From: Verrucomicrobiota bacterium
GTDB lineage: Bacteria; Verrucomicrobiota; Verrucomicrobiia; Limisphaerales; VHDF01
Assembly (NCBI GenBank): GCA_016871495.1
Contig: VHDF01000020.1
Span: 1-64,000 of the forward strand
Reading direction: 5' to 3'
Length of the DNA stretch: 64,000 nucleotides
Of this stretch, positions 37,805 to 64,000 are shown in pieces; position 1 is the stretch's first letter, and every line of letters begins with the position of its first letter. Position numbers and translations under genes: made by a program. Under the pieces are notes generated by a model. The model was not told the origin of the DNA. It made no database searches and was given only the letters and a program-made list of their open reading frames with translations.

Positions 37805-38797
37805 ATGAAAGTGTTTTCCTTCCTGAAATCGGAATCGCGATCCCGAGGCCGCCGGGTTCGCGCAACGCGATGCCACCGGCCATGGCTGGCCTTGCTGCTT
37901 GGGTTCGGATGTCTGGGGACCAGGGCCGACGCGATGGCTGCGGATGCGGTGTATTCCGGACCGCAGATTGGGGAGAAGACAACCCCCTTCAAAGTGGTGG
38001 AAGTCCTGGGCGAGAACACGGGCCGCGAGCGGGATCCGGTGATGGAAAACAAAGGGGCACCCACCGCTTGGGTATTTGTGCATGGCATTGAGCGGTCCAT
38101 GGTGCCGTTGTTGAGGGTGATCGATCAGTACGGGGTGGAGAGGCGTTCGTTATTGAAAACGGAGATTGTGTTCCTGGCCGCAGATCGCGTGGATGGCGAG
38201 CGACGTGTCAAAGCCGCGGCGAGTTCCCTCAAGTTGCAGGGCAAAGTGGGTTTGTCCCTGGACGGAGGAGAGGGACCCGGAAATTATGGATTGAACAAGG
38301 AATGCCTGATGACGGTGCTGGCCGGGAAAGAAGACCGTGTTGCCGCCAATTTCGCGCTGGTCCAGCCCGGTATCGCGGACGCGCCGAAAATTCTGGCCGC
38401 GCTGGCCGCCGTCGCCGGAGACAAAGCTCCGCCGACCGTGGAACAATTGACGGAGAAGTCCATGGCTCGAAGCGGAGCGGGCCGCGCGCCGGGTGCCGTG
38501 ATGGCGGGAAGCCAGGAAAAGCCCAAGGAGAATTTCCCGGGAGCGGTTCCGACCGACGCCAAACTCCAGGGGATGCTACGCAATTACATTCGACCCACGC
38601 AAGAAGCGGCGGCCGTCGATGCCCTTCTGGTCGAGATCAAGGCTTACATCAAGGACAGCGAAGATCTGAAAAAGCAGGCGATCGACGGGTGGACTCGGGT
38701 CCTGCATTTCGGCGACCGTTACGGAAATGAGTATTCCCGAAAAGTTGGGCGGGAATTCTTGGAGCAACTGCAGCGAGCGCCTGAGCGGAAGCCATGA
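37805..38797 (+). CDS. Hypothetical secreted protein
   Basis: Signal peptide (RPWLALLLGFGCLGTRADA). No recognisable domain. Confidence 0.45.
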   Translation: MKVFSFLKSESRSRGRRVRATRCHRPWLALLLGFGCLGTRADAMAADAVYSGPQIGEKTTPFKVVEVLGENTGRERDPVMENKGAPTAWVFVHGIERSMVPLLRVIDQYGVERRSLLKTEIVFLAADRVDGERRVKAAASSLKLQGKVGLSLDGGEGPGNYGLNKECLMTVLAGKEDRVAANFALVQPGIADAPKILAALAAVAGDKAPPTVEQLTEKSMARSGAGRAPGAVMAGSQEKPKENFPGAVPTDAKLQGMLRNYIRPTQEAAAVDALLVEIKAYIKDSEDLKKQAIDGWTRVLHFGDRYGNEYSRKVGREFLEQLQRAPERKP

Positions 38798-46263: not shown

Positions 46264-46356
46264 GGAACTTCGCACGGCAAAAACTAGCGAGGAAATGCAG
46301 GGTCGGCAATGACAGGGCGGTGCATCCGCAAGTTGTCGGGGCACGCCGATTGGGAG

Positions 46357-49300: not shown

Positions 49301-49809
49301 GCGGTGGGGGCAAGCAGAACCCAGCTCGCGTTGGGGTGGAGGCGTTGCAACTGGTCGAGCATTTGATGGAGATGCGTACGGAACGTTTCCAGGCCGGAGA
49401 CTCCGGCAAAGGATTCGTTTCCCCCGAAGGCGAGGAAGACCACCTGCGCGGGCCAGCGGGCGAGCATGGCTCGAAGATGATCCGCGTAGCCTTCCGCCCG
49501 GAGGCGGTGGCCGACTTCATCTCCCGTCCAGGCGAGAGAACGAAAGCGGAGCTTCAGGGCCGGGTTTGCGAGGTGGAAGAGCGACTGCAGCTCGCCGTTT
49601 TCGAGCAAACATTCGACCAGTGCGCCTCCGTAGAAAACGAGAGTGTCCTGGGGTTGGAGGGCGATCCGGGGACTCGCGGTCGCTGGCCCCAAGGGGGCGG
49701 GTTGCCGGCTGGATTCCTTTTGGGCATCGTTGTCCGCCGCTTGGCCGCAAAGGAAGATGGACGTCAACATCGCGCCGAGGAGGGGCAGGAAATGGAAGCG
49801 ATGGTGCAT
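46357..49809 (-). CDS. Large secreted multidomain protein: SGNH/GDSL-hydrolase-like N-terminus, beta-propeller (glucose/sorbosone-dehydrogenase-like), HEAT-like repeats, and a C-terminal azurin-like cupredoxin domain
   Basis: Signal peptide MHHRFHFLPLLGAMLTSIFLCGQA. The C-terminus (HNWVLV...YPFLCTFPGHWRLMRGVLIV) reproduces the azurin type-1 copper ligand set (His, Cys-x2-PGH-x3-Met). The start was trimmed from 49962 to the ATG at 49809. Confidence 0.7.
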   Translation of the reverse strand: MHHRFHFLPLLGAMLTSIFLCGQAADNDAQKESSRQPAPLGPATASPRIALQPQDTLVFYGGALVECLLENGELQSLFHLANPALKLRFRSLAWTGDEVGHRLRAEGYADHLRAMLARWPAQVVFLAFGGNESFAGVSGLETFRTHLHQMLDQLQRLHPNASWVLLAPTALEPGWTGPDASTRNADLARYSQVLAQTAEQRRALFIDLFRASQTAYSSSPSKLTLNGLHLNDAGNRRMARVIAESCLDTVLLRRIAPERLDEVRPAAARLAHFVAETVRPKNGILYYGQRKRPEERDAEMPLYFRRIDLAEALVHELSVNPSTRFSNAPPILLAPPPVPPSGGSTHSVGVVKSASEAQAEFTVAPDYRVNLFASDEEFPDLRAPVQIAFDARGRLWVVTMPSFPHTIPGQPQLDKLLVLEDTNRDGKADRSTVFAEGFDALDGIAFTSEGVLVSEQSRHWLLEDTDGDGRADRRHERLRGLDLTDSHHGGMIATDPVGNVWFSDGVFHRSQFETPWGVVRGVDATTYRLNPRSNRIESEWQSITPNPWKITFDRTGNIFQMYGDGLVLDGLALTWTPLGIYHPFAHAKILGYGKGSAAASISSPNFPPEYQQGIASAACVGPYLVSMTQFDLNQGMARARGRLDLVSSTNAAFRPVDVEFGFDGALYVSDFSSAIIGHAQHPMRDSRWNHVKGRIWRITHQGRPVVTNWPRILGGSVSDLLELLGHPQDLVRKHARLELRRQGRAVIADVEAWAARHLDEDQSVLEALFVLESFHETRPALLDRLQRSASPHHRAAAVRLARYQFDRIPQLVERLHTMAGDTHPRVQMEVVDAVAHLRPGHPEVEHALHALRPTQTDVLRMLEDLKQGTKPAKGRSVPVLETSPDTRVRYWQFLGEEARRPPVTIDTSDSSGERLGPGVFRTLVRSESAQPAILSTKHSFLDVRVNGETVLSHDSQWSSEQQAQFELKPGLNLLEIEYRKLQGRPPPAYLFDPVGQRLATVTLPGQTADLAAMASSWTETQLAGGGALTVRAAAGLQFSPKELRVKAGAKVRLVFENPDLMVHNWVLVQAGAGEEVGALADRMAADPQGMAKAYVPDSPQILAATPLVNPKGRAELRFEAPRNPGSYPFLCTFPGHWRLMRGVLIVTSEE

Positions 49810-49977
49810 GCGGAAGACCGTATCCGCGTCCGTGGCGGGGGGGCAAGCCGGCGGATGGTGAGCGTGGGAGATCGTTGGGATGGATGGCCTGGTGAGGGAT
49901 GCCGCGGGTTTGGCCGGAGGCCGGGGCGCGGCACGACTTTCGGCCGGGGACTGGAGAGGCAACCCCGAACTGCGGAT

Positions 49978-51018: not shown

Positions 51019-53118
51019 ATGGCTGGCGATATGGGAAATCGAGAAAACAGTCTGAAACGCTGGGCGTCGGTTCTGATGAGTGTGGTTTTGGCTTTGTCGG
51101 CATTGGTTTCCATCGAAACTTTTGGAGCCACGATCGACGTCACCAAGACGCAGATCAAGCTGGCGACACCGGAACAGGTGCGGGACGCCTTTCGCCGCGG
51201 GCTTTTCATTCCGGTGACGGAAGGAGGTTCGACCCTGCTGGCGGCTCAAACGAATGCGCCCATCAAAGGCACGCTGGCTGTTGCGCTCGCGACTCTTGGG
51301 GCTTTCGACAAGGCGGAGCCCCTCCTGAAATCCGCGGAGGCGGCCAAGGAACCTCAGGCTAGACTGCATCGCATCTTGTTCGAGGCGTTGATCGCTGAGA
51401 AGGCGGGGAAAGTGGATGCGCTGACCAACGCCTGCATGCGGGCGATTCGCGAGGATTTTCGACACCCGGTGGCGTATTATTTGCTGGCGAAATCGGCTCT
51501 GGATCGGAAGGAGTTCGCCCGAGCGGAAAAGCACGCCAACGAAGCCCTGGCTTTCGAGCCCCAGATGGCGCCCTCCATGTTTCTGCTTGGCATCGCGCGG
51601 CATGGATTGAACAAGCGGGAAGAAGCGGCCCAGGACCTTGCGAAAGCGATGCAGATGGATCCGCTGGACGCTCGCCCGCGCCTGGCCTTGGGCACCCTTT
51701 ACGCTGAGGCGGGAGCCCATGCGCAAGCGGTCGGATTGTTTCGGGAAGTGGCTACGATGAACCCCACGATGTTCATTGCCAGAGAGCGCCTCGGCCTTTC
51801 GCTCTTGGAACTGGGGCGGACCGACGAGGCGGTGGCGACCGCGCAGGAGGTGTTGCAGTCGCAACCGCAATCGATTCAAGCCCGCTACACGCTGGCGCTC
51901 GCCCAACTAAGGGCCGGAAAGATCGAGGAGGCCGAGCGGGAATTGAAACTGTTCACCGAAGCTGCTCCGAACGCATCGGAAGGCTATTATTTGACGGGAT
52001 TGGCCAAGGCCTTGCGAAATCGTCCCCAAGAGGCGCACGCGAGCCTGGCCAAGGCACTTCCTCTGGCGGCCCAGCGCAGCGGGGTGCTCAGCGCCATGGC
52101 CACCTTTCACCATCTGGCGGGAGATCTCGACGAGGCGGCAAAAGGTTTTCAGGAGGCTTTGCCGGGAGCCCAACCGGGGATGACGGACCGCATTCATTTT
52201 CAGCTCGGATTGCTGGCGTTGGATCGCAAGGACTGGAAAAAGGCGCACGAATGGTTTCAAAAAAGCACGAAGTTCGTTTCAAATTTTCGAAGCGACTTGC
52301 TCGATTACCCGAGTCTCTTTCAGGCGGCTCCGGCGAAGAGCCTGGGTTCCTCCAGCCTGGGCTGCCTGCTGCTGGCGGACCGTTTTTTGGTGGCATCCCG
52401 GGATTCCTTCAAGAAGTCGTTGCAGTCTCACCCCCGGGACGCGGTGGCTCTGTTGCTGGGCGCGAGCGCGTCGGCGCGAATGGGCGACAGTCCGCAAGCC
52501 CTGGAATGGCTTGCGAAGCTCGCCGCGTTGCAGCCCAATTACTGGCCCGCGCACTATGCCTTGGGGGACCTTTATCTGAACCGGCGGGATTGGGAGAAAT
52601 CGGAGGCTTCCTTGAAACGCACGATCGAACTCGACCCCCTGAACGAGGCGTCCTATCTCCGATTGCTCGGCATTTATCGCGAGAAGAAACAGCATGATCA
52701 AGCCGACGCGACGGCCCGCCAAATGATGGCGAAAATGCCGTCCAATCCCCTGGGGTTCAATGAAATGGCGGCTTTGCTGGCAGACCGGAAAGAAAAGCTC
52801 GACGAAGCTTTGACGCTCGCCAAGAAGGCCCTTTCGATGGAAATGAAGAATGGCTATTTCCTCGATACCCTGGGCTGGGTGCATTACCAGCGAGGCGAGT
52901 TTACGCAGGCGGAAAAGACGTTGCGGGAAGCTGTGGCCGCTCTGCCGCGGCATCCTGAAGTGCGACTGCACCTTGGCTTGGTTCTTTTCAAGAATCAAAA
53001 GCTGGAGGAATCCGGAACTCACTTGCAGCAAGTGCTGAGCTTGGCGCCCGGTTCAAGCTTGGCCAAAGAGGCCCAAGATTTGTTACCCAAGACGGTAAAA
53101 CTTGGAGGCACGCCGTAG
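51019..53118 (+). CDS. TPR-repeat protein (secreted or membrane-anchored)
   Basis: Multiple TPR-like helical repeats (AxxxLxxAL.., YYLxGLA.., ...). N-terminal hydrophobic segment. SD-like 'gaggt' sequence 6 nt upstream. Confidence 0.75.
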   Translation: MAGDMGNRENSLKRWASVLMSVVLALSALVSIETFGATIDVTKTQIKLATPEQVRDAFRRGLFIPVTEGGSTLLAAQTNAPIKGTLAVALATLGAFDKAEPLLKSAEAAKEPQARLHRILFEALIAEKAGKVDALTNACMRAIREDFRHPVAYYLLAKSALDRKEFARAEKHANEALAFEPQMAPSMFLLGIARHGLNKREEAAQDLAKAMQMDPLDARPRLALGTLYAEAGAHAQAVGLFREVATMNPTMFIARERLGLSLLELGRTDEAVATAQEVLQSQPQSIQARYTLALAQLRAGKIEEAERELKLFTEAAPNASEGYYLTGLAKALRNRPQEAHASLAKALPLAAQRSGVLSAMATFHHLAGDLDEAAKGFQEALPGAQPGMTDRIHFQLGLLALDRKDWKKAHEWFQKSTKFVSNFRSDLLDYPSLFQAAPAKSLGSSSLGCLLLADRFLVASRDSFKKSLQSHPRDAVALLLGASASARMGDSPQALEWLAKLAALQPNYWPAHYALGDLYLNRRDWEKSEASLKRTIELDPLNEASYLRLLGIYREKKQHDQADATARQMMAKMPSNPLGFNEMAALLADRKEKLDEALTLAKKALSMEMKNGYFLDTLGWVHYQRGEFTQAEKTLREAVAALPRHPEVRLHLGLVLFKNQKLEESGTHLQQVLSLAPGSSLAKEAQDLLPKTVKLGGTP

Positions 53119-53247
53119 GCCGTTGCCTGATGGTTGCTCCTCATCCGAGTTTCGCAAGACCCCGTGTCATTTGGGACGACCGCGTGCGGACGCTGAGAGA
53201 CTGACCAGGTGGGAGTCTTCGCGGGCATTCTCATCGTGCCTTGTTTT

Positions 53248-53550
53248 ATGGGGACCGTGCCCTGGCTGCGAGCTACGAAGGATGGCGTGATCTTGCATGT
53301 GAAAGCCGTGCCTCGTGCCCACCGGACCGAGGTGGCCGGTGTGGCCGGGTCCGAGTTGCGCATCCGGGTGGCCGCGCCGCCGGTGGATCAAGCCGCCAAT
53401 CGATCGTTGCGCGATGGGTTGGCCGAATGGCTGGGCATCCCGAAAGCCGCCGTGACGCTGATCCGGGGGAACACTTCCGCGCACAAGCAATTCCTCGTGG
53501 TTGGGATCTCAATGCAAACCGCTGCGGAAAAGCTGCGAACCCGCCGGTAA
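53248..53550 (+). CDS. DUF167 (YggU family) protein
   Basis: GVILHVKAVPRAHRTEVAGV...LRIRVAAPPVDQAANRSL...LIRGNTSAHK matches YggU/DUF167. Confidence 0.6.
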   Translation: MGTVPWLRATKDGVILHVKAVPRAHRTEVAGVAGSELRIRVAAPPVDQAANRSLRDGLAEWLGIPKAAVTLIRGNTSAHKQFLVVGISMQTAAEKLRTRR

Positions 53551-53582
53551 GCGGCAACCAGGGTTGTTTCTTCCATCACCCC

Positions 53583-53600
53583 TCGCGAACGTTCGCGAGC
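53583..53600. promoter_or_regulatory. 18-bp perfect palindrome ctcgcgaacgttcgcgag between the DUF167 gene and the ECF sigma gene (possible operator or weak terminator)
   Basis: Perfect dyad symmetry. Lies 33 bp after the stop at 53550 and 128 bp before the sigma start at 53728. Confidence 0.3.
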
Positions 53601-53727
53601 CGAAACCCGTGCCGTCGGATGACGAGGCACCGTCGATGGGAGTATATTCTCAAGAATTTCGTCTAAGAAATCGAAGGCGGGCGTGTCATGAAGGTATGGC
53701 ACGGTTGATCTTCAAGACACGAACACG

Positions 53728-54339
53728 TTGAAAGACATCGAAATGGTTCTTGGATCCATGCCCGAGCCTGACCCACCCGAGTCCTGTTCGCACCTAGCAC
53801 GGGAAGAAGGGCCGGACCGTGATCCCATCGAGGCCGTGTTTGCGGTGATGGAATCGCCGCTCTTGTCCTACGCGTGGCGTTGGACCCACGACCGGACTCA
53901 GGCGGAAGACTTGGTGCAGGAAGCGTTCATGAGATTGCATCGACAATTCAGCGCGGTGAAAGAACCCCGGCGATGGCTGTTTCGAACGGTGCATCATCTG
54001 GCTCTGAATCTGGCCCGGGACTCCGCCAAGATAGTGCCTTTTGAGGCGCCGAATCGTTCGGAGGAATCGGGCTGGGGCGGACAGGATGCGGTGGCCGATC
54101 CCGGCCCGCTTCCGGATGAAGCTCTTGCTCAATGGGAAAAGAAACGCCGGATAAGGTTGCTGGTCGATTCCCTCGAAGCGCGCAGCCGCGAATTGGTGAA
54201 ACTGAAGTTCGAGGACGGACTCTCCTATCAGGCGATGGCGGAGCGAACGGGGCTGACCTCGGGCCACGTCGGTTACCTGTTGCACCACGCCCTCAAAAGT
54301 CTTGGAGAAAAAGTGCGTCAGGAAGGCATCACGCCATGA
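53728..54339 (+). CDS. ECF-type RNA polymerase sigma-70 factor
   Basis: Region 2 (LVQEAFMRLHRQF..., RWLFRTVHHLALN) and region 4 HTH (LVKLKFEDGLSYQAMAERTGLTSGHVGYLLHHALKSL). Confidence 0.8.
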   Translation: MKDIEMVLGSMPEPDPPESCSHLAREEGPDRDPIEAVFAVMESPLLSYAWRWTHDRTQAEDLVQEAFMRLHRQFSAVKEPRRWLFRTVHHLALNLARDSAKIVPFEAPNRSEESGWGGQDAVADPGPLPDEALAQWEKKRRIRLLVDSLEARSRELVKLKFEDGLSYQAMAERTGLTSGHVGYLLHHALKSLGEKVRQEGITP

Positions 54340-57110
54340 ATGAAAACCCCACATTCCGAGATTCCAAGGAAGCGAAGATAACCGCCCATATTTTGGGGGA
54401 ACTGGGACCGGAGGAGGCGTCCGAACTCACCGCGGAAATGGCCAAGCATCCCGAGCTTGGAGCGGCTCGCGCCTCCCTCGAGGCGACGGTCGCTGTGTTG
54501 CGGGGTCTGAAAGCGAATACCACGATGGGAAGCCGCGACTCCGGCGAGGCCCTTGAGCTTCCCAATGAGAAACGCCAGCGATTACTCGCGGCCTTTCGGG
54601 TCAGCCGTCCGGCAGCGTTCGCGGATCGTTGGAAGCGCTGGAGGATCGCACCCACTCAGGAGTGGTTGAAGGTGGCGGCCATGATCACGGCTCTCTTGGC
54701 GCTCTCCGCTTCGCTCTTCCAGAGCTATCGCTGGGCTTCCCAGTCGCCCCTGGGATCACCCGAGCTTGTCGCAGGCAATCCCGGTGTAGTGTTATGGGAT
54801 GTGGCCCCTGAGTCCGAGGCCAAAACCTCGCCGTCGTTAGAAAACTTAGTCAGGGAGAATATCCCCGCGACGACTCGATCGATTCGAGGTCGGGGTGCAA
54901 GCCTGCCAAGCGGACAAGCTGGAGGTTCAGTCCCATCCTGGAACTTTCTCCCGCAAGCCTCCACGGAGGATTTCTACAAGTCACCCGCATCCGCTGCACC
55001 GATGCTCGCCAGTCCCGGAGCGACGAAGGGGCTGGACGTTGCGGATGGGGAGAATGCGCCGGTGCTCGGTCCGGTGGTGAGTTTGAGTCGAAACTTGCGG
55101 GCGGCGACTTCGGCGCCCGCGAAAGTGTCTTCCGACGCTCCGGTATCCGCGCCGCTCACACTGGTGCCGCCCGCGCCCGCGCAGGCCGCGCCCAGGCCGG
55201 TCCTTCAGGCTTTGGAAAGGAAAGTTCCTCAACCGGCCATGGATCCTCGGATGATGGCAAGGTACGGACTCGTGCCGCGCCCACCTTCAGGAGAAGCGGA
55301 CAAGGACCGGACCCTGGGCCGAAACCCGGGTGCGGTTTCGAGAGTGGCGGAATTGAACGAATCACTCCAAGAGCGTGAAATGGTGGATCAACTTTCCGAC
55401 CTGAAGGCCGATGGAAGCAGAAACACGGACAAGGCGGAGGTTTTCGCGTTCACGGGGGATGAGTTGGCGGCAGACAGGAGTGATGCGGCGGGTGCGAAGA
55501 CAGAGCAAGAATCCCGAGGGAATGACGCGAGAGTTCCTTCGGTCAGTGATGGATTCGCTTTGGCTCAAGCCGGGTCTGCTTCCAGGGAGAATCCTGATGA
55601 ACTGCGCCGGCAAGAGGTGAGGGGTGCCGCGCGGTTGACGGAGTTGGGACTCGCAGCCAAGGAGAAGGCGCTGTCGGAAGAGGGGTTAGGGAAGAAGCTC
55701 GCTCTTGAGGGTCAAACTGGGTTGAACCGGGATTTGAAAGAGGGCGGCTCGCCTCGTTCGATTGTTGCGGTTCAACCCGAGAAGTCCCCCGCGACCGATC
55801 CTTTTTCGACCTTCTCGCTCCATGTTTCCGATGTTTCATTCAAACTGGCTCAGGCCTCCCTGCGAGATGGAGCGTTGCCTGATCCCGCCTCCATCAGGAG
55901 CGAAGAGTTCATCAACGCGATGGATTACCGAGACCCCGAACCTCGATCAGGCCAGCCTCTCGGTTTCGTCTGGGAGCAGGCTCGATATCCCTTCGCGCAC
56001 CATCGCGACGCTCTGCGATTCAGCGTCAAGACGGCCGCCGCGGGTCGCACTGCTGCTCAGCCTTTGAACCTGGTGCTGCTGCTGGATAATTCGGGTTCGA
56101 TGGAGCGTGCGGATCGGGTGCGGATTCGAAGGGAATGCCTCCGCGTGCTGGTGGAACAACTGCGTCCCATCGACCGCATCAGCGTGCTGGCTTTTGCGCG
56201 CACCACGCGACTGGTGGCAGACGCCTTGCCGGGTGATCAAGCGGGCGGCCTCCCAGCGAGTTTTGCCGAACTTGTGCCCGAAGGGGGGACCAACTTGGAG
56301 GAGGCGCTGAAACAAGGTTACCGGCAGGCCCGGGCCCGGTTCAACCCGCAGGGCGGCAATCGCGTCGTCTTGTTGACCGATGGAGCGGCCAACCTGGGTG
56401 AAGCCAATCCGGAGGCGCTGCGCCAGATGGTCGAACATCATCGCCGCGGGGGCGTGGCGCTGGATTGCTTCGGCATCGGCTGGGACGGGCTGGACGACGC
56501 TTTCCTGGAGGCCCTTTCCCGCAATGGAGATGGACGGTACGGTTTTGTGAATAGTCCGGAAGCCGCGGCGACGGAATTCGCGGCCCAATTGGCGGGAGCT
56601 CTGAGGGTCGCTGCCTCTGACGTCAAAGTGCAAGTGGAGTTCAATCCACGCCGCGTTCGGACTTACCGGCAGGTGGGCTATGCCCGTCATCAGCTCACGA
56701 AGGATCAGTTTCGGGACAATACCGTGGACGCGGCGGAGCTTGCGGCCGCGGAGTCGGGAAACGCGATTTATCTCGTTGAGACCGATCCGCAGGGAGAAGG
56801 ACTTCTGGCGACGGTGCGGGCTCGATTCAAGGTGCCTGGCACCTCCGATTATCGCGAGCAATCATGGCCCGTTCCCTACCGGGGTCCGGCACCCGCGTTG
56901 GACAAGGCCTCTCCCTCCCTTCGACTGGCCCTGGCCGCGTCGGCCTTTTCGGAGTGGCTCGCGCAAAGTCCGTTCGCGGCCGAGGTCAACCTGGAATTTT
57001 TGACGCGGACGGTGGACGCATTGAAACCGAGCTTTCCCTACGACCAGCGCCCGCAAGAATTGCAACAGATGATTCAACAAGCCCTGTCGATCCAGGGATC
57101 CAAACCATGA
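54336..57110 (+). CDS. Anti-sigma factor (N-terminal cytoplasmic domain + single TM) fused to a periplasmic vWA domain with a DUF3520-like C-terminus (YfbK-like)
   Basis: The start ATG overlaps the sigma gene's stop (ATGA). N-terminus AHILGELGPEEASELTAEMAKHPELGAA is an anti-sigma domain. TM segment VAAMITALLALSASLF. vWA MIDAS motif LVLLLDNSGSM...LLTDGAAN. Confidence 0.7.
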   Translation: MNENPTFRDSKEAKITAHILGELGPEEASELTAEMAKHPELGAARASLEATVAVLRGLKANTTMGSRDSGEALELPNEKRQRLLAAFRVSRPAAFADRWKRWRIAPTQEWLKVAAMITALLALSASLFQSYRWASQSPLGSPELVAGNPGVVLWDVAPESEAKTSPSLENLVRENIPATTRSIRGRGASLPSGQAGGSVPSWNFLPQASTEDFYKSPASAAPMLASPGATKGLDVADGENAPVLGPVVSLSRNLRAATSAPAKVSSDAPVSAPLTLVPPAPAQAAPRPVLQALERKVPQPAMDPRMMARYGLVPRPPSGEADKDRTLGRNPGAVSRVAELNESLQEREMVDQLSDLKADGSRNTDKAEVFAFTGDELAADRSDAAGAKTEQESRGNDARVPSVSDGFALAQAGSASRENPDELRRQEVRGAARLTELGLAAKEKALSEEGLGKKLALEGQTGLNRDLKEGGSPRSIVAVQPEKSPATDPFSTFSLHVSDVSFKLAQASLRDGALPDPASIRSEEFINAMDYRDPEPRSGQPLGFVWEQARYPFAHHRDALRFSVKTAAAGRTAAQPLNLVLLLDNSGSMERADRVRIRRECLRVLVEQLRPIDRISVLAFARTTRLVADALPGDQAGGLPASFAELVPEGGTNLEEALKQGYRQARARFNPQGGNRVVLLTDGAANLGEANPEALRQMVEHHRRGGVALDCFGIGWDGLDDAFLEALSRNGDGRYGFVNSPEAAATEFAAQLAGALRVAASDVKVQVEFNPRRVRTYRQVGYARHQLTKDQFRDNTVDAAELAAAESGNAIYLVETDPQGEGLLATVRARFKVPGTSDYREQSWPVPYRGPAPALDKASPSLRLALAASAFSEWLAQSPFAAEVNLEFLTRTVDALKPSFPYDQRPQELQQMIQQALSIQGSKP

Positions 57111-60100
57111 AGCCTATGATTGACACGCCTTCCTCGAGTGCGGCGGCGGATCGGGGGATCCGAGCTCCCATGCCTGCGGTCCTGAGCTGCCCGCCCTGGA
57201 CTTCGTATGTCCGGGGGTTGTTTGTCCTCTTGCTCGCGGGAGGGATGGGAGTGGCCCGGGGCGGTCCGGCGGAGGCGCAGAGTGTGAACATTCAAGGCGG
57301 CATTGCGGACGGCAAGGCGCGGCTGCTGATCGAAGCCCTCTTGAAAGAGCACGGGGAGGATCGATTAAAGGTTTTCCATACGACCTCCATCAACCATCAC
57401 CTGCGGGTTCAATCCGATCAGATTGAGCACGCCCTGGATTTGAAGTTCGAGGTTTTGCAGGGGGAGGCCAGGGAAGTTCAACTCGCCCTGAAAGGCGAAG
57501 GCGAAGTGGTGTCGGTCTCGGGCGAAGCGATTCAAGACTGGAGTGTGCGTCGCGAACCGGGCGGGTCGGCTTGGCTGGTGCTGCGGACTCGCAAGCGGGA
57601 CAAACCATGGGATCAGTTTCAGGCCTCTGTGGTTGCACTGACGAAACTTTCCGGGCTGCCCGCGACGGTTTCCCCGCTGGTCGTGCATGGCGCGGTCGCG
57701 GCTCTGGGCAGCGGGATGATTCGCGTCACGGACACACCCGAAATGTCGGCTGAGGTGGTCGAGTCGGCGGGACTTGTTTCCCTGCCTGGGGGGGCGGCGC
57801 AGGGGAATCGAGGTACTGCGGGCCAGGCCGGAACCGACGGGAGTGCTGCTTATCGGATCCAGGGAGAGCCCTATCGGTTCACGTTGAAATGCAGCTTGTC
57901 GGATCCGGAATCGAGAACGGTGGTTTTGCGAGGATTCGAGCTGAGGGGTGATCTGGGGGATGGTCGGGCGGGGTTCGAGCTCGTGGGAACGGCGAGAGTG
58001 GGAAACCCTCGAGGCGGGACCATGAGATTGCTGTCGGGCGGCGCTGCGTTGAGCGAGTCCCAGGATACAGGAGACGCGCGGCTGGAGTTTTCGGAGGGCG
58101 CCTATCGCCTGAAGTTCGATCGTCCGGGCGATTATTCGTTGCGGGTGCGTTTCAACGCGCAAGTGGCGCGGTCGAACGATTGGCAAACCGTGCGGTTTCA
58201 GGTCGCTCAGGGGGCGCTCCAGCCGGTGGTATTGAAAGGGCTTTCGCCCGAGGCCGAGGTTGAGTTTGCCGGCTCGGCCCGGGCGGTTCGTTCCGGGACG
58301 GAAGCGCGAGCCCATCTGCCTTCGGATGGGACGGTTCAATTTGCTTGGAAGAAGGCGCGCCCGGAACTTGAGTCCAAACTGTTTTACTCCGCCGAAATGC
58401 AAATGAACGTGGTGGTCGCGCAAGGTCTTGTGAAACAGGCGGCCCTGCTTCAGGGGCGGGTGATGCAAGGGGAGCTTGGGCAACTGGTTCTTCGACTCTC
58501 CGGTGCGGGAGATTTGACGCGGGTTCAAGGGGCGCAAATTCTGTCCTGGCAGGTGGCTCCAGCCGGGGGGGGGTCAGCCGACCGGCTTCTGACGCTGCGG
58601 TTCAATCAGGCGGTGAAGGAGCATTTCGTGGTGCAAATTCATTCACAGACGGATCTCGGGGCGTTGCCGGCGCAAGCTTCGCTGCTGCAATTGGCGCCGG
58701 AGGCGGCCACGCGATTCGCGGGACACATCCGGGTGGTCAACGAGGGGGTGGTCCGGTTGGAGGTGCTTTCGAGCCGGGGCCTGTCGCAGGTATCGCCCGA
58801 GCAGTTTCCCGAGAACGATCAAACCCGGAGCGTTTTTCCGGCGCCGGGTCCGCAGCGATTCGTGTTTCGCTTTTCGACGGCGGACTTTGGATTGACCCTG
58901 CGGGCCGACACCATTCTGCCGGAGCTGGGAGTTTCGCAGGTGCTTGTTTATCACGCGGGGGAGAACGAAACGTGGATTGAAGCGGAGTTCGACGTGGAGG
59001 TCAGGGAGGCGCCCATTCGCGAATTGCTCCTGCGCGTCCCCCAAGGTTATGCTCTGGCTAAAGTAAGCGCTCAAGGGATGAGCGATTATGTGCTTGGGAG
59101 TTCCGAGGATCAACCGGAGTTGCGGCTGGTTTACGGACAGCCCGTGCTGGGGCGCCAGTTGGTGCAATTGCGTCTGGAGCGGAATGCAGCGCTGGGAGCG
59201 AGCGCCTGGACGCTGCCGCGTTTGGAAGTGCCTCGTGCGAAGTCGGTGCGGGGGGCGGTGATCGTGTCTTCGGACATGGGGTTTCGGGTGAACGCGGGCA
59301 GAATCAGCGGGCTGGTCGAGTTGGCGACCGCCTTCGCCCCGAAGAAGGTCGTGGGCATTCAGGCTGCCTTCCGCCTGGTGGAACCCTCCTGGGCGGCGGA
59401 AGTCATGATCGAGCGGCTTCCGCAGACGATCCAGGCGGAAGCGTTTCATTTATTCTCGATCGGAGAGGGGCTCGCATACGGGGGGAGCACGATCCAATAC
59501 TCGATCGCAGGAGCTCCGAAGGGAGTCTTTCTGGTCGAGCTTTCGGAGGAGTATGCCAACGTCGAATTCACGGGGAAGGACGTGCGGGGCTGGCAGAAAA
59601 CACCCGAGGGTTATCGTGTGCAACTGCACAATCCGGTCGCGGGTTCGTTCACCATGCTGGCCACCTATGAACGCGCTTTCAAGCCGCAGGGCGCGACCCT
59701 CGCCTTCACGGGAGCACGTCCATTGGAAGTGCAGTCCGAGCAAGGCCACACGGTCGTTGTGAGCGCCTACCAATTTGCCGTCAAGCCCGTCAATGTCAGT
59801 CCTGGATTGATCGCGCTTGAGCCGGCGGAGGTGCCTTCCGAGTTTCGGCTCTTGTTCGACTCGCCCGTCCTGGCTGCGTATCGTTATGCCGCGCGCCCTT
59901 TTCAGCTCCAGCTTGAATTGAGCCCGCTGGCCCAAGGCGAAAGTTTAAGCCTGGTGGCCGACCGCGCCTCCTTCTCCACCCGGATTTCCAAGGACGGTGA
60001 AATCCTGACGACCGCGCGCTATTTTCTGAAGAATCGAGGCCACACGCATCTGCGCCTCGAGCTTCCCTCCGGAAGCGAATTGTGGTCCGCCACCATCGAC

Positions 60101-63100
60101 GGAGTGACCGCCGCGCCCATCAAGGATGGCGCCAGCAGCCTCCTGCCGCTGCCCAAACAACCGGATCCGAACACGGTGCAATCCCTCGAGCTCAAGCTGG
60201 CGAGCCGTGCCAGCACCGAGCGCTATCTTCGCGCCGCCCTGCCGGTGTTGTCGTGTCCGGTTCTGCTGGGCGATTGGAGCATTGCCGCGGATTCCGGGCG
60301 CCAACTGGTTTATCGGACGGGCTCGCTGGTGCCCTCGGGAGGGATTCCGGACCCTTCATCGTTTGCCACATTGGGCCGAGCCTGGCGCGATGCGCGCTCG
60401 TCCTTGGGGCTTTTGGCGTTGATCGCGTCGGGTCTGGTGCTTTTGGGATTGGCCGCGACTCGTTGGGCCAGTGGTTCCGAGGCGGCGAGGAACAAGGCAG
60501 TCTCCTGGCTGGCGAGATGGGTGGGGCTGCTGTCGCTCGTGCTCGCGCTGGCGGCCTTGATCCCGATAATGGAGACTGTCGGCCGTCATCGCATCGGAGA
60601 TGTGAGTGTGCTGCGTTTTGTGGCGCCTGTTCAGCAAGCAGGCAGTTCTCTGGCGGTTGAATTGGGCAATCTGCCTTCCGGGGTCTCCTGGGGGGGCAGA
60701 TTCTCCAGTCTGATTCCCGCGGCATTTGCCATCGGGTTGTGGTTGCTGAGTGTGAGGGAAGCCTGGACGTGGTTGCGACCGGTGTTGGGACCGATAGGCT
60801 GGACGCTGTTGGCGTGGTCCACTTTGAAAATGCCTGGCGCCGGAGAATGGTTTTTCGGCTTGTTGGCGGTCTTCCTCCTTTTCCGGGTTTGTGGTCCTGG
60901 GGTGCTTCGATTGTGGCGGGCGAAAGGATTGGGAGGAACGACCGGAGGAGGTTCGACCTCGGCCCCGGTGGTGGCGGCGCTGCTGGTGGGGATCATCGGG
61001 ATGGGCCAGCAGGCTCAGGCCCAGGCTTCGAGCCAGCAGCGTAGTGTCAACGAACCGGTTTTGACGGGGGAGACGGTCTCCAAGACGGCCTCCCGGAAAT
61101 CGGTGGCTGATTGGATCGAACAGGAGGTTCGCATTGAGGACCGGCATGTTCAGGCTCAAGTGATTTTGAAATGGCGGGCGTTGAAGGGGCAGTCGATTCC
61201 AGTGTTGGCGGGAACTGCGGTGTTGACCTCTTTGGAAGCCCCCACCAACGCAGTGCAGTGGGTGCTCGACGAGGCGGCGCCGGGCTCGGTTCACCGTCTC
61301 TGGGCATTGAAGGATGGGGCGGTTGAAGTCCGATTCTCCTATCAGACCGAGTCCCAGCTGCACGGCGGCATCCCGGGCTTTGTTTCGCCCGTTTTCCATG
61401 GACTGGTCAATCGATGGAGTCTCACCGTGCGAGGGGCGGAAGTGGAAGTTCACTCCCCGCAGTCGGTGGCGCATGAATCGCTGACCCGGGAAGGTCACAC
61501 CCACGCCAAGCTTGTGACGCTGCCTCTGGATCGAGCTTTGGTGACCTGGCGTCCGCGCAGCCGTGACACGCGCAGCGAGAAGGCGTCATTCTTTGTGGAG
61601 TCGGCCCACCTTTACGCCCCGGCGGCGGGGGTGGTCGATGGATTGCATTGGGTCCAGATCCGCCCGGTTCAGGGGGAGTTAGGCGAGTTGGCGCTGGAAG
61701 TGCCGGAGGCGATGGCCATTGCGGATGTGACGGACGGTGCCCTGAAGCCGGTCCCGGCCGAAGTCGGCACCCGGGCCAGGCCTGCGTCCCCGGCGCCCCT
61801 TCTCGCTTCCTGGAGTTTTGCGCCTGACTCGCGGGTGTTAAAAATTCAGATGGCTGCTCCGCAATCGCGGCCGTTCCAGCTCGTGATCCGTTCCCAATCT
61901 GCGGCGAGCCCGCTTCCCTTCACGAGAAAGCTTGGGATGATCTACGTGAAAGGAGCCGAGGGACACGTCGGCTTGGCTGGATTAGCCACGGGTGAAGAAG
62001 TGCAGCTCGATCGGGTCGATCCGTCGGGCATGAGCGCGATCAGCTTGGAGGACTTTCCAGGCGCCCCGATGGGGATCCTGTCGCAAACCCATCCCGGGTT
62101 GACCTTGCGCAGGGCTTTTCGAGCGGGCACCCGCGAAGGCATGCTTGAGGTGCGCGCCAGCGCCGTGGAACCCGATGTGCGAGTCGAATCCCAGCAAACC
62201 ATTTCCGTGGGAGAGGATCGCCTCGTGCTGGCAGCCAACTTGGTGGTCAGTGTGGCGAGGTCGGGCGTGTTTCGCTTCAGCTTCACGCTGCCGAACGGGC
62301 TCGAGGTCGAGTCTCTCTCGGGTAACGGCATGAGTCATTGGACTGAGCTCGCGCGTCCGGAAGGCCGTGTGGTCACGATGCATTTGCCGGGCAAGACCCT
62401 GGGGGAAACACGTTTTGCCATCACGCTGGCCGGAGCCGGATTGAAAGGGGTTCCGCGATGGACGGTTCCGAGACTGGAATTGCGGGAAGCCTCGAAGCAG
62501 CGGGGCCAGTTGATCATCGTTCCCGAACAAGGTTTGCGGGTGCAGGTCGGAAACCGCGAAAACGTCACCCAGCTCGATCCTCAAAAGGCCGGGATCCATC
62601 AAAAAGGCGTTCTGGCCTTCCGAATTTTGCAGGAGCAGTGGGTGTTATCCTTGGACTTGGCGCAAGTGGAATCCTGGGTGCAAGCGACCAGTTTGCAGCA
62701 CGTCACCGTGGGGCCGGCCCAAGTGCGGACTGGGGTGAACTTGCAGTATCAAATTGAAAACACCGGGCTCAAGGCCTTGCGGGTGCGGATTCCGACCAAC
62801 GCGGAAAGCCTGCGTTTCAAGGGCGATCAGGTCGCCGATTTCGTCGCCTTGGGCGACGCGGACGAGAACGGATTGCGCACGTGGGAAGTCAAACTCCACC
62901 GACGTGTCCTGGGACGATATCTTCTCCAAGCCAGCTTTCAGACCGGTCTCTCGTCCGAGGCGCAGGATTTCACGATTCAGGGAGTGCAAGCGGTGGACGC
63001 CGGACTGCAGCGAGGATTCGTTTCGCTTGAAGCCACGGGCCGGACCCAAGTCCGCCCTGGAACGGTGCCGGACGGGCTTCAGGCCTCGGAGTGGCAAAGC

Positions 63101-64000
63101 GTGCCCAGAACGCTGCAGCAAGACGTCGTGACCGCGTCCGCCAGTCACACGTTCCGGTTGGTGGACGCGTCGTGGCAGTTGCCGTTGAAGATTGAACGCC
63201 ACGAGGCCGCCAAGCTGTTGCCGGCCCGCGTCCAGTCTGTCACGTTGAGATCCGTCATTTCCGACGAGGGCGTGATGCTCACGGAAGCGCGGTTGGAGTT
63301 GTTTCCCGGGGACAAGCGGCTGCTTCAAATCGCTCTGCCGGCCGAGGCGAAGTTCTGGTATGCCCTCGTCAATCAGAATGGCGTGTGGCCATGGAAAGAA
63401 GGGGACAAGACTTTGATCCCCCTCGAGGCCGCCAAGTCCGGAGCCGTCTCGGTCGTGGAGATTTATTACTCGAGCCGCATCGGTTCCCCGCACACCCGGC
63501 GGCTGGACCTTGCCCTGCAAGGACCCAGGTTCGATCTGCCCCTGGAGAATATCGCTTGGCAAGTGCGATTGAATCCCAAGTGGCGTCTTGATTCATGGAA
63601 GGGCACGCTGGAGTTGAGGGAAGAGAGCTCTCTGCCGGTCGAGCCCTTCGATCTGGGCGGATACCTGAGCAGGGAGTCCAAGGCGCGAGCTGAGCGCAGC
63701 AAAGCGGCTGAGGAGTTTCTTAATTTCGGCAATCAATTGCTTGAAACGGGAGATCCCCAGCAAGCCCGCCGGGCGTTCCAAAATGCCTTCGGACTCAGCC
63801 GTCACGATCATGCGTTCAACGAGGATGCCCGGGTCCAGCTCCACAATCTCAAACTGCAACAAGCGATGGTGGGGTTGAACGTGCTCAACAACCGGCAGCC
63901 CGCCCGGGGGGAAACTCCCGCTGCGAAACAGGCGACGGCGGTCGCGGGCCGGGCCGGCGCCTACACCCAGGCCGAAGCCAAGGAACTCCTGGATGCGAAT
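57107..64000 (+). CDS. Giant membrane/secreted protein (at least 2,298 aa, 3' end beyond the window). Not present in the supplied ORF track.
   Basis: I translated frame 2 codon by codon from the ATG at 57107 to 64000 and found no stop. The ATG overlaps the anti-sigma gene's TGA (ATGA). There is an N-terminal TM/signal segment (GLFVLLLAGGMGVA), a central cluster of about 5 TM helices (around nt 60400-61030), and internally repeated beta-rich modules. Confidence 0.75.
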   Translation, partial: MKPMIDTPSSSAAADRGIRAPMPAVLSCPPWTSYVRGLFVLLLAGGMGVARGGPAEAQSVNIQGGIADGKARLLIEALLKEHGEDRLKVFHTTSINHHLRVQSDQIEHALDLKFEVLQGEAREVQLALKGEGEVVSVSGEAIQDWSVRREPGGSAWLVLRTRKRDKPWDQFQASVVALTKLSGLPATVSPLVVHGAVAALGSGMIRVTDTPEMSAEVVESAGLVSLPGGAAQGNRGTAGQAGTDGSAAYRIQGEPYRFTLKCSLSDPESRTVVLRGFELRGDLGDGRAGFELVGTARVGNPRGGTMRLLSGGAALSESQDTGDARLEFSEGAYRLKFDRPGDYSLRVRFNAQVARSNDWQTVRFQVAQGALQPVVLKGLSPEAEVEFAGSARAVRSGTEARAHLPSDGTVQFAWKKARPELESKLFYSAEMQMNVVVAQGLVKQAALLQGRVMQGELGQLVLRLSGAGDLTRVQGAQILSWQVAPAGGGSADRLLTLRFNQAVKEHFVVQIHSQTDLGALPAQASLLQLAPEAATRFAGHIRVVNEGVVRLEVLSSRGLSQVSPEQFPENDQTRSVFPAPGPQRFVFRFSTADFGLTLRADTILPELGVSQVLVYHAGENETWIEAEFDVEVREAPIRELLLRVPQGYALAKVSAQGMSDYVLGSSEDQPELRLVYGQPVLGRQLVQLRLERNAALGASAWTLPRLEVPRAKSVRGAVIVSSDMGFRVNAGRISGLVELATAFAPKKVVGIQAAFRLVEPSWAAEVMIERLPQTIQAEAFHLFSIGEGLAYGGSTIQYSIAGAPKGVFLVELSEEYANVEFTGKDVRGWQKTPEGYRVQLHNPVAGSFTMLATYERAFKPQGATLAFTGARPLEVQSEQGHTVVVSAYQFAVKPVNVSPGLIALEPAEVPSEFRLLFDSPVLAAYRYAARPFQLQLELSPLAQGESLSLVADRASFSTRISKDGEILTTARYFLKNRGHTHLRLELPSGSELWSATIDGVTAAPIKDGASSLLPLPKQPDPNTVQSLELKLASRASTERYLRAALPVLSCPVLLGDWSIAADSGRQLVYRTGSLVPSGGIPDPSSFATLGRAWRDARSSLGLLALIASGLVLLGLAATRWASGSEAARNKAVSWLARWVGLLSLVLALAALIPIMETVGRHRIGDVSVLRFVAPVQQAGSSLAVELGNLPSGVSWGGRFSSLIPAAFAIGLWLLSVREAWTWLRPVLGPIGWTLLAWSTLKMPGAGEWFFGLLAVFLLFRVCGPGVLRLWRAKGLGGTTGGGSTSAPVVAALLVGIIGMGQQAQAQASSQQRSVNEPVLTGETVSKTASRKSVADWIEQEVRIEDRHVQAQVILKWRALKGQSIPVLAGTAVLTSLEAPTNAVQWVLDEAAPGSVHRLWALKDGAVEVRFSYQTESQLHGGIPGFVSPVFHGLVNRWSLTVRGAEVEVHSPQSVAHESLTREGHTHAKLVTLPLDRALVTWRPRSRDTRSEKASFFVESAHLYAPAAGVVDGLHWVQIRPVQGELGELALEVPEAMAIADVTDGALKPVPAEVGTRARPASPAPLLASWSFAPDSRVLKIQMAAPQSRPFQLVIRSQSAASPLPFTRKLGMIYVKGAEGHVGLAGLATGEEVQLDRVDPSGMSAISLEDFPGAPMGILSQTHPGLTLRRAFRAGTREGMLEVRASAVEPDVRVESQQTISVGEDRLVLAANLVVSVARSGVFRFSFTLPNGLEVESLSGNGMSHWTELARPEGRVVTMHLPGKTLGETRFAITLAGAGLKGVPRWTVPRLELREASKQRGQLIIVPEQGLRVQVGNRENVTQLDPQKAGIHQKGVLAFRILQEQWVLSLDLAQVESWVQATSLQHVTVGPAQVRTGVNLQYQIENTGLKALRVRIPTNAESLRFKGDQVADFVALGDADENGLRTWEVKLHRRVLGRYLLQASFQTGLSSEAQDFTIQGVQAVDAGLQRGFVSLEATGRTQVRPGTVPDGLQASEWQSVPRTLQQDVVTASASHTFRLVDASWQLPLKIERHEAAKLLPARVQSVTLRSVISDEGVMLTEARLELFPGDKRLLQIALPAEAKFWYALVNQNGVWPWKEGDKTLIPLEAAKSGAVSVVEIYYSSRIGSPHTRRLDLALQGPRFDLPLENIAWQVRLNPKWRLDSWKGTLELREESSLPVEPFDLGGYLSRESKARAERSKAAEEFLNFGNQLLETGDPQQARRAFQNAFGLSRHDHAFNEDARVQLHNLKLQQAMVGLNVLNNRQPARGETPAAKQATAVAGRAGAYTQAEAKELLDAN

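Follow-up and report, generated by a model that had tools for sequence, protein, structure and literature searches.

A conserved three-gene module of Verrucomicrobiota combines an ECF sigma factor and a putative vWA-type anti-sigma factor with a giant cell-envelope protein

The last part of the window, i.e. of the whole 64,000-nucleotide stretch of DNA that was analysed, contains a genuine gene for a cell-envelope protein of 2,393 amino acids. This gene is the third member of a module whose order, ECF sigma factor, anti-sigma factor with a vWA domain, giant protein, is conserved across Verrucomicrobiota. Judged by searches of sequence libraries, the giant protein founds a large family outside Pfam and NCBIfam.

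The giant open reading frame is a gene

Translation from the ATG at position 57107 to position 64000 of the + strand yielded 2,298 codons without a single stop, in agreement with the first-pass annotation; each of the five remaining frames has 12–77 stops over this length. The frame is open already from position 56780, and ATGs at 57116 and 57170 are alternative in-frame starts. The GC contents of 0.67, 0.48 and 0.72 at the three codon positions match the expectation for coding DNA. The stop codon, which was to be sought beyond the window, is located 288 nt past its end, such that 95 codons and the stop lie outside. An identical full-length protein (P0001) of 2,393 amino acids is encoded on a Logan contig, and the window thus contains the first 2,298 of 2,393 codons (57107..64000, + strand). 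The list of open reading frames contains no + strand entry for this region because it omits frames running off the source; the first-pass annotation had suspected that the gene was missed for lack of an end within the window.

Long spurious frames do arise in GC-rich DNA, and antisense frames from the list that overlap the giant gene reach 390 amino acids. It is nevertheless practically out of the question that the frame is no gene and merely reflects chance, a pseudogene or an assembly artefact. At the given base composition, a run free of stops from 57107 to 64000 has a probability of about 10^-31.4; when this stretch was shuffled 200 times, open runs reached at most 422 codons. Hundreds of homologues have the same length and conserved residues, and the structure models of the giant protein are confident. 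Moreover, the identical sequence was obtained in an independent assembly. Together, these data refute this alternative.

The three-gene module and its conservation

The first gene of the module (53728..54339, + strand) encodes an ECF sigma-70 factor of group 4. The protein matches Pfam Sigma70_r2 and Sigma70_r4_2 and reaches 78.8 bits with the NCBIfam model TIGR02937 (sigma70-ECF; cut-off 42.9). Candidate starts are TTG 53728, ATG 53743 and ATG 53758, the last of which is used by the gene call on the identical contig. The resulting length of 193–203 residues, with only sigma-2 and sigma-4 regions, falls within the ~170–210 residues of ECF group 4. The adjacent anti-sigma gene and a -35/-10-like dyad upstream correspond to the arrangement from which self-regulation of an ECF sigma factor would be predicted.

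The second gene (54336..57110, + strand; 924 amino acids) was assigned as an anti-sigma factor gene by its +1 position, its Pfam matches, and its ATG, which overlaps the sigma stop. The protein starts with a helical region, predicted to be cytoplasmic, which is followed by a single membrane helix, a linker of low complexity, and vWF_A, VWA and YfbK_C (DUF3520) domains; Pfam matches were obtained for PF12450 (aa 481–558), VWA families (aa 578–741) and PF12034 (aa 755–915). The membrane helix (aa 110–128; 54663..54719, + strand) is the sole hydropathy peak above 1.5. It is preceded by the basic stretch RWKRWR, and the vWA/DUF3520 part is therefore predicted to be periplasmic. The vWA domain (56067..56558, + strand) contains an intact MIDAS metal site (DNSGS ... 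GGT ... TDG), whose residues DxSGS, GGT and TDG are kept in 61 of 62 anti-sigma homologues. With 52–67% identity, the vWA/DUF3520 part is more conserved than the giant protein (~48%). No evidence for a zinc-type (ZAS) anti-sigma domain was found: there is no Cys within the first 100 residues and no Pfam match to zf-HC2 or RskA. By position and topology, the N-terminus is likely a non-zinc helical anti-sigma domain.

The start codon of the giant gene (ATG, 57107–57109) overlaps the stop codon of the anti-sigma gene (TGA, 57108–57110), and the start codon of the latter (ATG, 54336–54338) overlaps the stop codon of the sigma gene (TGA, 54337–54339). Both junctions thus read ATGA, exactly as the first-pass annotation had stated, which had also proposed a tightly coupled module. 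The start/stop overlaps stand for the DNA analysed here, but the one between the anti-sigma and the giant gene is a peculiarity of this genome. At other loci, the distance between these two genes varies from a 4-nt overlap up to more than 1.5 kb, and translational coupling was therefore rejected as a conserved feature.

A conserved neighbourhood, which had been suggested as a target for searches, does exist. Among 58 loci with at least 5.5 kb of DNA upstream of the giant gene, the vWA/YfbK_C gene is present on the same strand in all 58 and the sigma gene in 57. The gene order is unchanged at 30–49% identity while the flanking genes vary. Sampling based on the promoter-like motif described below gave a similar picture, with the vWA gene in 12 of 13 sigma loci having enough downstream DNA, and the giant gene in 5 of 5 loci.

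A promoter-like motif upstream of the sigma factor gene

The sequence TTTCGTCTAAGAAA-N12-GTGTC (53657..53687, + strand), which combines a -35-like and a -10-like element with ECF-type spacing, occurs only once in the 64-kb window. The dyad was found in 39 of 56 regions upstream of sigma genes, as opposed to at most 4 in shuffles; at the other 17 loci the canonical motif is absent. In 1.72 Mb of loci plus the window, 41 of 42 regex matches are located 47–251 nt upstream of a sigma gene on the same strand. In a scan of metagenomes, 66 of 78 informative matches lie directly upstream of a sigma homologue, and the motif also precedes other exported proteins, among them CarboxypepD_reg and DUF1559 proteins. 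One locus (L074) has a second copy directly upstream of the giant gene. The motif was not found in the literature searched. Operon structure and motif together suggest that the giant gene is controlled by the sigma factor.

Architecture of the giant protein

Hydropathy averaged over the family alignment revealed an N-terminal signal peptide or membrane anchor at aa 37–55 (57215..57271, + strand); AEA-QS in this N-terminal segment is a possible cleavage site. It is followed by a first arm (aa 56–1095; 57272..60391, + strand), which is all-beta and made up of a string of beta-sandwich modules. A poorly conserved central cluster of 5–6 hydrophobic segments (aa ~1096–1305; 60392..61021, + strand; individual segments at aa ~1100–1301) separates it from a second, homologous arm (aa 1306–2170; 61022..63616, + strand). 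The TPR-like helical tail (aa 2183–2263; 63653..63895, + strand) contains the best-conserved stretch of the whole sequence. Within this tail lies the near-invariant motif AFNEDARVQL (aa 2236–2245; 63812..63841, + strand), whose residues E, D, A, R, V, Q and L do not vary in any of the three alignments A1, A4 and A5. A C-terminal helix, also seen in the hydropathy profile, falls outside the window. An AQAQA site after helix 6 is a further candidate for cleavage by signal peptidase. Column identity to the reference averages 0.27 in the central cluster, compared to 0.47–0.49 in the arms. On the basis of hydropathy, the protein is predicted to be anchored in the membrane by the N-terminal segment, the 5–6 central helices and the C-terminal helix. 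By the same criterion, the two arms of ~1,000 residues and the tail would be located in the periplasm; this topology depends on the helix count, as a central cluster of 5 helices instead of 6 would place the second arm in the cytoplasm.

Residues 438–1074 and 1506–2168 align with 23% identity (E 2e-34). Single-arm paralogues that sit in tandem in other phyla argue for the giant protein being a fusion of two units. The signal or transmembrane segment, the cluster of about five hydrophobic helices and the long beta-rich regions with internal repeats that the first-pass annotation had read from the sequence were all recovered. Its two examples of repeats fared differently: the second (aa 643 versus 1727) is in register, whereas in the first aa 977 aligns to 2068 and not to 1462.

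The structure models suggest that each arm is a series of beta-sandwich modules like those of Ost1/ribophorin I and of the N-terminal domain of M1 aminopeptidases. The fold matches are to generic modules at 5–17% identity and therefore say little on function. Since the pTM of the models is 0.36, they do not predict how the domains are arranged. A motif scan recognised no catalytic motif: the protein contains no HExxH and no CxEQ thioester, and only 4 Cys.

Distribution of the giant protein family

The homologue search identified 74 full-length-type homologues of the giant protein with 26–53% identity. At E ≤ 1e-3, 6,029 cluster representatives match, corresponding to ~6,000 clusters at 50% identity, and relatives are encoded in the genomes of at least 542 species. 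According to the taxonomy of the loci, all carriers of the module are Verrucomicrobiota; among them is the cultured Chthoniobacter flavus Ellin428 (locus L039), whose module lies at about 149–176 kb of NZ_ABVL01000007.1 and is one of those without the canonical motif. Distant relatives from Lentisphaerae, Planctomycetota and another lineage occur without the sigma/anti-sigma pair and adjoin other regulators, e.g. a sigma-54 activator or a hybrid histidine kinase. The giant family can therefore work without the pair, an observation equally compatible with a role as regulated target and with one as partner.

The first-pass annotation could not assign the giant protein to a known family from the sequence, and Pfam yielded no match at E values up to 5, neither for the full protein nor for any member of both half-alignments. 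Searches of NCBIfam and a profile search of PDB sequences were likewise negative, as was Pfam for the distant relatives P0075 and P0077–P0079. A search with the tail only (aa 2175–2393) recovered only fragments of family members, none with a novel architecture, and no description of the family was found in the literature searched. None of the three module proteins matched a PADLOC model, and an anti-phage defence system was rejected on these grounds.

Possible function of the module

The best explanation as a whole, which we hold tentatively, is a self-regulated envelope module with the giant protein as its main cargo, a non-enzymatic periplasmic scaffold and possibly a partner of the anti-sigma factor. 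The sigma factor would transcribe its own operon from the TTTCGTCTAAGAAA-N12-GTGTC motif, and the giant protein would therefore be the main cargo of the operon. It may act as a non-enzymatic platform for binding or as a scaffold. The least certain step, and a rather doubtful one, is that the anti-sigma vWA domain binds the giant protein as its ligand in the periplasm. If so, an acidic residue of AFNEDARVQL would be a candidate ligand of the MIDAS, and it would depend on the giant protein being assembled, ligand-bound or damaged whether the anti-sigma factor holds or releases the sigma factor, which would close a feedback loop on the operon. One may speculate further that a novel envelope-signalling device is made up of the giant protein together with the vWA anti-sigma factor: a two-armed, periplasm-filling beta-sandwich 'antenna', once two subunits and now fused, that the anti-sigma factor reads via contact at the MIDAS metal site. 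Such a device would be loosely comparable to integrin-like proteins coupled to a sigma factor. This proposal is improbable as it stands.

Alternatively, the giant protein could be an effector only, for example a scaffold that reinforces the envelope or binds matrix under envelope stress, while the vWA/DUF3520 part senses another ligand and no signal returns. The occurrence of the family beside other regulators in other phyla is consistent with a mere output, as are the second motif copy upstream of the giant gene at L074 and the motif copies before other exported proteins in metagenomes. Moreover, output genes adjoin the sigma gene in several ECF groups, e.g. the metal efflux operon of ECF291 (PMC7826278). 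On the other hand, the strict adjacency (58/58 and 5/5), combined with the overlapping codons seen here, is tighter than usual for a simple target, and direct contact is suggested by the pairing of a protein-binding domain of the MIDAS type with a giant protein made only of binding-type modules, both placed in the periplasm and always co-encoded. Neither point is decisive, and we regard a pure output as somewhat unlikely. The central helices might also be the working part of a transporter or channel, with the arms as accessory gates or substrate binders. Hydropathy does indicate a multi-helix membrane domain, which in the family consensus contains the conserved loop motif FxAPVQxAG. However, this cluster is the least conserved large region (0.27 versus 0.47–0.53 elsewhere), no transporter family was matched in Pfam or NCBIfam, and the called genes of the four loci L001–L004 include no conserved ATPase or partner permease, which makes such a role very improbable. 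There is similarly little to be said for a protease trap or surface adhesin, in which the beta-sandwich arrays would act like a bacterial alpha-2-macroglobulin or an integrin- or pilin-type adhesin. The low Cys content and the missing thioester motif speak against it, and neither model contains a helical thioester domain; TM-scores are ~0.1 at 7–11% identity. Furthermore, the central cluster and the C-terminal helix would keep the protein anchored in the inner membrane, and Pfam gave no sortase, autotransporter or type IX secretion signal.

Pairs of ECF sigma and anti-sigma factors are a major route of bacterial signalling. For one lineage with vWA and DUF3520 domains, a strictly conserved third component, a candidate promoter and a cultured carrier, C. 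flavus, are now supplied, which opens the system to experiment. The giant family makes up a sizeable unannotated share of the envelope proteome of Verrucomicrobiota, for which a structural outline now exists. If the antenna proposal were true, these bacteria would report the state of their envelope, or external polymers bound to it, to transcription.

Comparison with known systems

Bat (Bacteroides aerotolerance) clusters comprise MoxR, DUF58, the vWA proteins BatA/B, TPR proteins and BatD, and are not known to contain a sigma factor. The module resembles them in that a membrane vWA protein is co-encoded with TPR-containing and large beta-rich envelope proteins. Its vWA domain matches BatA weakly (23.7 bits versus an NCBIfam cut-off of 380). 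Because neither a MoxR ATPase nor DUF58 is found among the called genes of L001–L004, and no BatD/'oxygen tolerance' match in Pfam, a Bat/MoxR cluster was rejected.

In the FecA-FecR-FecI and RseA/RseB/sigma-E systems, a single-pass anti-sigma factor holds an ECF sigma factor and senses, through its periplasmic domain, the state of a second envelope protein; the genes form a cluster, and the operon is under its own control. MuiA, a DUF4139 protein, is a periplasmic beta-rich inhibitor of AlgU activation. The likeness of the module to the Fec and RseA systems would lie in its possible working and not in family membership. It lacks a FecR domain, a TonB-dependent transducer and an RseB-like protein (Pfam; called genes of the module), and Fec-type cell-surface signalling was rejected for this reason. 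The sensor domain would be vWA/MIDAS plus DUF3520 instead, and the proposed partner is a giant protein of the inner membrane and not an outer-membrane barrel.

In fold, the giant protein resembles Ost1/ribophorin I (OST subunit 1) and the N-terminal domain found in M1 aminopeptidases (ERAP1, LTA4H, APN, F3, TAF2), a likeness that need not reflect common ancestry; it is bacterial, has two arms and repeats the module many times. It is not an M1 aminopeptidase: besides the missing HExxH there is no Peptidase_M1 match in Pfam, and only the fold of the N-terminal domain is common to both. Long extracytoplasmic strings of beta-sandwiches also occur in alpha-2-macroglobulin/complement and in the legs of integrin alpha (Foldseek E 1e-8 to 1e-5). 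The giant protein differs from these in its membrane topology, and alpha-2-macroglobulin was rejected given the lack of C.EQ, the total of 4 Cys and the absence of a helical domain within the arms of the models. In integrins, a vWA/MIDAS protein likewise pairs with a beta-sandwich-rich partner, which is an analogy only.

Among the closest known systems are the groups ECF226 and ECF289 of the ECF classification 2.0, in which the sigma gene is followed at +1 by a one-helix anti-sigma factor with DUF3520 fused to a von Willebrand domain (Casas-Pastor et al. 2021, PMC7826278; supplement of 10.1101/2019.12.11.873521). ECF226 includes Verrucomicrobia (same sources). ECF289 is 100% proteobacterial with the predicted promoter CCCAAGGA-Xn-CGTCTxA, and the ECF groups with this type of anti-sigma factor have no known input, output or promoter (supplement of 10.1101/2019.12.11.873521). 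Literature searches for DUF3520/YfbK led only to the ECF classification paper; in the Azospirillum RpoE6 paper, vWA proteins appear as regulon members only. The anti-sigma factor of the window has the same layout, with its single helix and its vWF_A, VWA and YfbK_C (PF12034) domains. Its carriers, all Verrucomicrobiota, and its motif do not fit ECF289. Judged by the architecture of the anti-sigma factor, the pair appears to be of the catalogued ECF226/ECF289 type. The three genes had been put forward as the most likely candidate for an undescribed system in the window; this does not hold for the regulator pair, and what is new compared to the catalogue is the giant +2 gene product as a third component and the promoter-like motif, both of which are conserved in the module.

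Reality and extent of the giant gene

Translation of the plus strand from the ATG at 57107 encountered no stop codon in 2,298 codons up to position 64000, as the first-pass annotation had stated; the remaining five frames of 57107–64000 contain 12–77 stops. By base composition, a stop-free stretch of this length has a probability of about 10^-31; in 200 shuffles of the region, the open runs reached 422 codons at most. The GC content at codon positions 1, 2 and 3 (0.67/0.48/0.72) is as in coding DNA. The open frame extends back to 56780, and ATG codons at 57116 and 57170, also in frame, offer alternative starts. Because the ORF list leaves out ORFs that run off the source, its entries here are all short and either antisense or off-frame; this is the reason that had been presumed for the omission. 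The recommended extension of the frame was provided by P0001, a homologue of 2,393 aa that is identical to the window product across all 2,298 residues. The sigma and anti-sigma genes of the window recur with 100% identity on the 14.2-kb contig of P0001. Only the final 95 codons and the stop codon are therefore missing from the window.

A conserved three-gene module

An ECF sigma factor, a vWA/DUF3520 anti-sigma factor and the giant envelope protein are encoded by a real, conserved three-gene unit behind a conserved motif. The two ATGA overlaps described earlier were both read in the sequence, at 54336–54339 (sigma/anti-sigma) and 57107–57110 (anti-sigma/giant). The sigma product (193–203 aa) comprises sigma-70 regions 2 and 4 and scores 78.8 bits against the ECF model TIGR02937 (cut-off 42.9). 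The anti-sigma product, which directly follows, has 924 aa. Its N-terminal segment is helical and free of cysteines, and its only hydrophobic helix (aa 110–128, just preceded by RWKRWR) is followed by a 340-aa linker rich in Ala/Leu/Ser/Pro/Gly and by the domains vWF_A (PF12450), VWA and YfbK_C (PF12034, formerly DUF3520). The vWA domain has the metal-site residues DxSGS, GGT and TDG, which 61 of 62 homologues share. The vWA/DUF3520 part is presumably periplasmic. Identity to homologues is 52–67% for the MIDAS-domain part versus about 48% for the giant protein.

For the giant protein, 74 homologues were found (about 2,000–2,600 aa, 26–53% identity), which are unnamed or 'hypothetical' throughout; a scan of one genome per species yielded at least 542 relatives. 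Among the matches listed, the giant-gene loci are essentially all from Verrucomicrobiota and include one of Chthoniobacter flavus Ellin428, which is in culture. With a profile built from the N-terminal half, 6,029 cluster representatives were matched at E<=1e-3, and 1,700 of them at E<=1e-30. The proposed search for a conserved neighbourhood was positive: of the 58 loci with at least 5.5 kb of upstream DNA, all carry a vWA/YfbK_C gene and 57 a sigma gene upstream of the giant gene on the same strand. This order is kept down to 30% identity although the flanking genes differ completely. Independent sampling via the promoter motif gave the same order, with a vWA gene in 12/13 sigma loci (at least 3.5 kb downstream) and a giant gene in 5/5 (at least 6.5 kb downstream). 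Between anti-sigma stop and giant start, the spacing in the loci ranges from an overlap of 4 nt to a gap of more than 1.5 kb. Translational coupling is thus a property of this genome, not of the family.

In L010, L044, L049, L057 and L076, the vWA/YfbK_C gene ends 0.9–1.8 kb before the aligned part of the giant gene begins; the gap could be due to a small additional gene or to a long extension of the N-terminus. The homologue P0002 has 2,613 aa. A shorter sub-family of about 2,050–2,250 aa (loci L022–L026, L034, L037, L048, L074, L076 and others) is devoid of roughly the first 90–220 residues of the first arm; matches begin at query residue 88, and the N-region has 850–940 aa versus about 1,047 otherwise. 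Nine loci (L014, L019, L035, L037, L041, L042, L052, L074, L075) carry a Verrucomicrobiota-type giant gene (46–50% identity) in bins titled Bifidobacteriaceae, Bifidobacterium, Candidatus Acidoferrum, Acidiferrales, Limnocylindrales or Methylomirabilota. Probably, either the contigs were mis-binned or the bins are mislabelled.

Two genes at 51019–53550 adjoin the module on its upstream side, one for a protein of 699 aa made up entirely of TPRs and one for a PF1765-like (PF02594) protein of 100 aa; they have this position here and on the identical contig, and not in other loci. Three PSCyt2/PSD1 (DUF1549/DUF1553) proteins are encoded at 5876–19027 and 38794–40926; one has a planctomycete cytochrome c domain and two adjoin DUF1501 proteins. 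Pairs of this PSCyt2/PSD1-DUF1501 kind are characteristic of the PVC superphylum and consistent with a Verrucomicrobiota origin. At 44791–49962 on the minus strand lies the gene for a 1,201-aa protein with DUF7133, a GDSL lipase domain, HEAT repeats and a cupredoxin domain, adjoined by a SelO protein adenylyltransferase gene.

A promoter-like motif

For 56 sigma genes, two-part motifs were counted in the preceding 300 nt. One dyad, TCTAA-N16-GTGT, stood out: it occurred in 39 of these regions, and any dyad in shuffled sequence in at most 4; its aligned form is TTTCGTCTAAGAAA-N12-GTGTC. A stricter pattern had 42 matches in 1.72 Mb (loci plus window), 41 of which lie 47–251 nt upstream of a sigma gene and on its strand. 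The remaining match (L074:9744) is directly upstream of a giant gene; this locus has two copies, the other preceding its sigma gene. The sole copy in the window is at 53657–53687, and the candidate sigma starts follow it at a distance of 40–70 nt. Metagenome contigs scanned for exact matches yielded at least 119 sites, of which 80 were examined and 78 were informative; 66 of the 78 are directly upstream of a homologue of the window sigma. The other 12 precede genes of exported proteins. Those in L101, L103, L109/L112/L156, L114/L149, L125 and L157 are two CarboxypepD_reg proteins, one DUF1559/N-methyl pseudopilin-like protein, a secreted protein that has no Pfam match and recurs three times, and small secreted proteins. 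They are candidates for extra regulon members. The spacing of the motif fits ECF promoters, and we infer that the window sigma uses it.

A perfect 18-bp palindrome, CTCGCGAACGTTCGCGAG, is located at 53582–53599, about 30 nt past the end of the upstream small gene and some 60 nt ahead of the -35-like element. It is not followed by a T-run and may represent an operator or the stem of a terminator.

Architecture of the giant protein

Family-averaged hydropathy located an N-terminal signal or anchor (aa 37–55), a central cluster of five clear helices and possibly one weaker (aa 1100–1301), and a C-terminal helix (about aa 2366–2388) followed by RWAARS. The N-terminal segment and the cluster of about five helices had been recognized in the first-pass annotation, as had internal repeats. 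Residues 438–1074 and 1506–2168 form a duplication (23% identity, E 2e-34); of the two repeat examples given earlier, the second is in register with it and the first is not. The helix preceding the second arm ends in AQAQA and resembles a signal peptide. Due to the duplication and this helix end, the protein looks like two tandem signal-ectodomain-anchor units. In Planctomycetota and another lineage, distant relatives take the form of single-arm genes in tandem (L086:3923-16576, 1,391+2,859 aa; L087:8001-16640, 1,568+1,294 aa), each of which matches both half-profiles (E 1e-41 to 1e-123). In place of an ECF pair, they have a sigma-54 activator or hybrid histidine kinase as neighbour. The verrucomicrobial protein looks like a fusion of two single-arm units. 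Both arms would be periplasmic if the central helices number six.

AlphaFold2 models based on the family alignment are in keeping with the beta-rich regions proposed before. Residues 50–1095 (pLDDT 81.7) are predicted to consist entirely of strands, and residues 1296–2393 (pLDDT 79.0) of strands to about aa 2172, then three long helices (aa 2183–2263), two more, a small hairpin and the terminal helix. Both models have a pTM of 0.36, so that the individual domains are reliable and the domain arrangement is not. The best-conserved stretch is located in the tail (aa 2229–2258, GLSRHDHAFNEDARVQLHNLKLQQAMVGLN). Searches of Pfam, NCBIfam, PADLOC and PDB sequences gave no match for the giant protein or 37 aligned half-sequences, in agreement with the earlier failure to assign a family.

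Possible function of the module

The earlier interpretation as a sigma/anti-sigma/giant-protein module is supported, with caveats. The sigma factor would transcribe its own operon, so the giant protein would be its main cargo. This protein may be a scaffold or binding platform of the periplasm, attached to the inner membrane and devoid of enzymatic activity. We tentatively suggest, as a possibility rather than an expectation, that the giant protein is the ligand of the vWA domain and that its state is fed back to the sigma factor. Points in its favour are that the co-occurrence of giant and anti-sigma genes is strict, that the MIDAS domain is intact and better conserved than the giant protein, and that both proteins would share one compartment. 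The chief rival reading makes the giant protein output only. It is supported by the extra motif ahead of the L074 giant gene and by family relatives in other phyla that adjoin other regulators and lack this pair.

Other readings are improbable. Neither HExxH nor CxEQ was found in the giant protein, which has four cysteines only. Lacking the CxEQ thioester, it is unlikely to be a protease trap. A transporter is unlikely, as the helix cluster is the least conserved large region (mean column identity 0.27) and no transporter family matched in Pfam or NCBIfam. So is an adhesin, with no sortase, autotransporter or type IX secretion signal in Pfam, and so is a chance ORF, given the improbability of the open frame and the hundreds of homologues.

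Comparison with known ECF groups

ECF classification 2.0 contains two groups with such anti-sigma factors, ECF289 and ECF226 (PMC7826278; 10.1101/2019.12.11.873521). ECF289 is 100% Proteobacteria, with the predicted promoter CCCAAGGA-Xn-CGTCTxA, and ECF226 stems from Acidobacteria, Planctomycetes and Verrucomicrobia (10.1101/2019.12.11.873521). The module resembles both in the type of its anti-sigma factor. The regulator pair is therefore already known as a kind, albeit uncharacterised. The giant +2 gene and the motif are absent from ECF classification 2.0 and from the other literature found. What was found here is an ECF module with an undescribed, phylum-wide giant third component, well defined and amenable to experiment.
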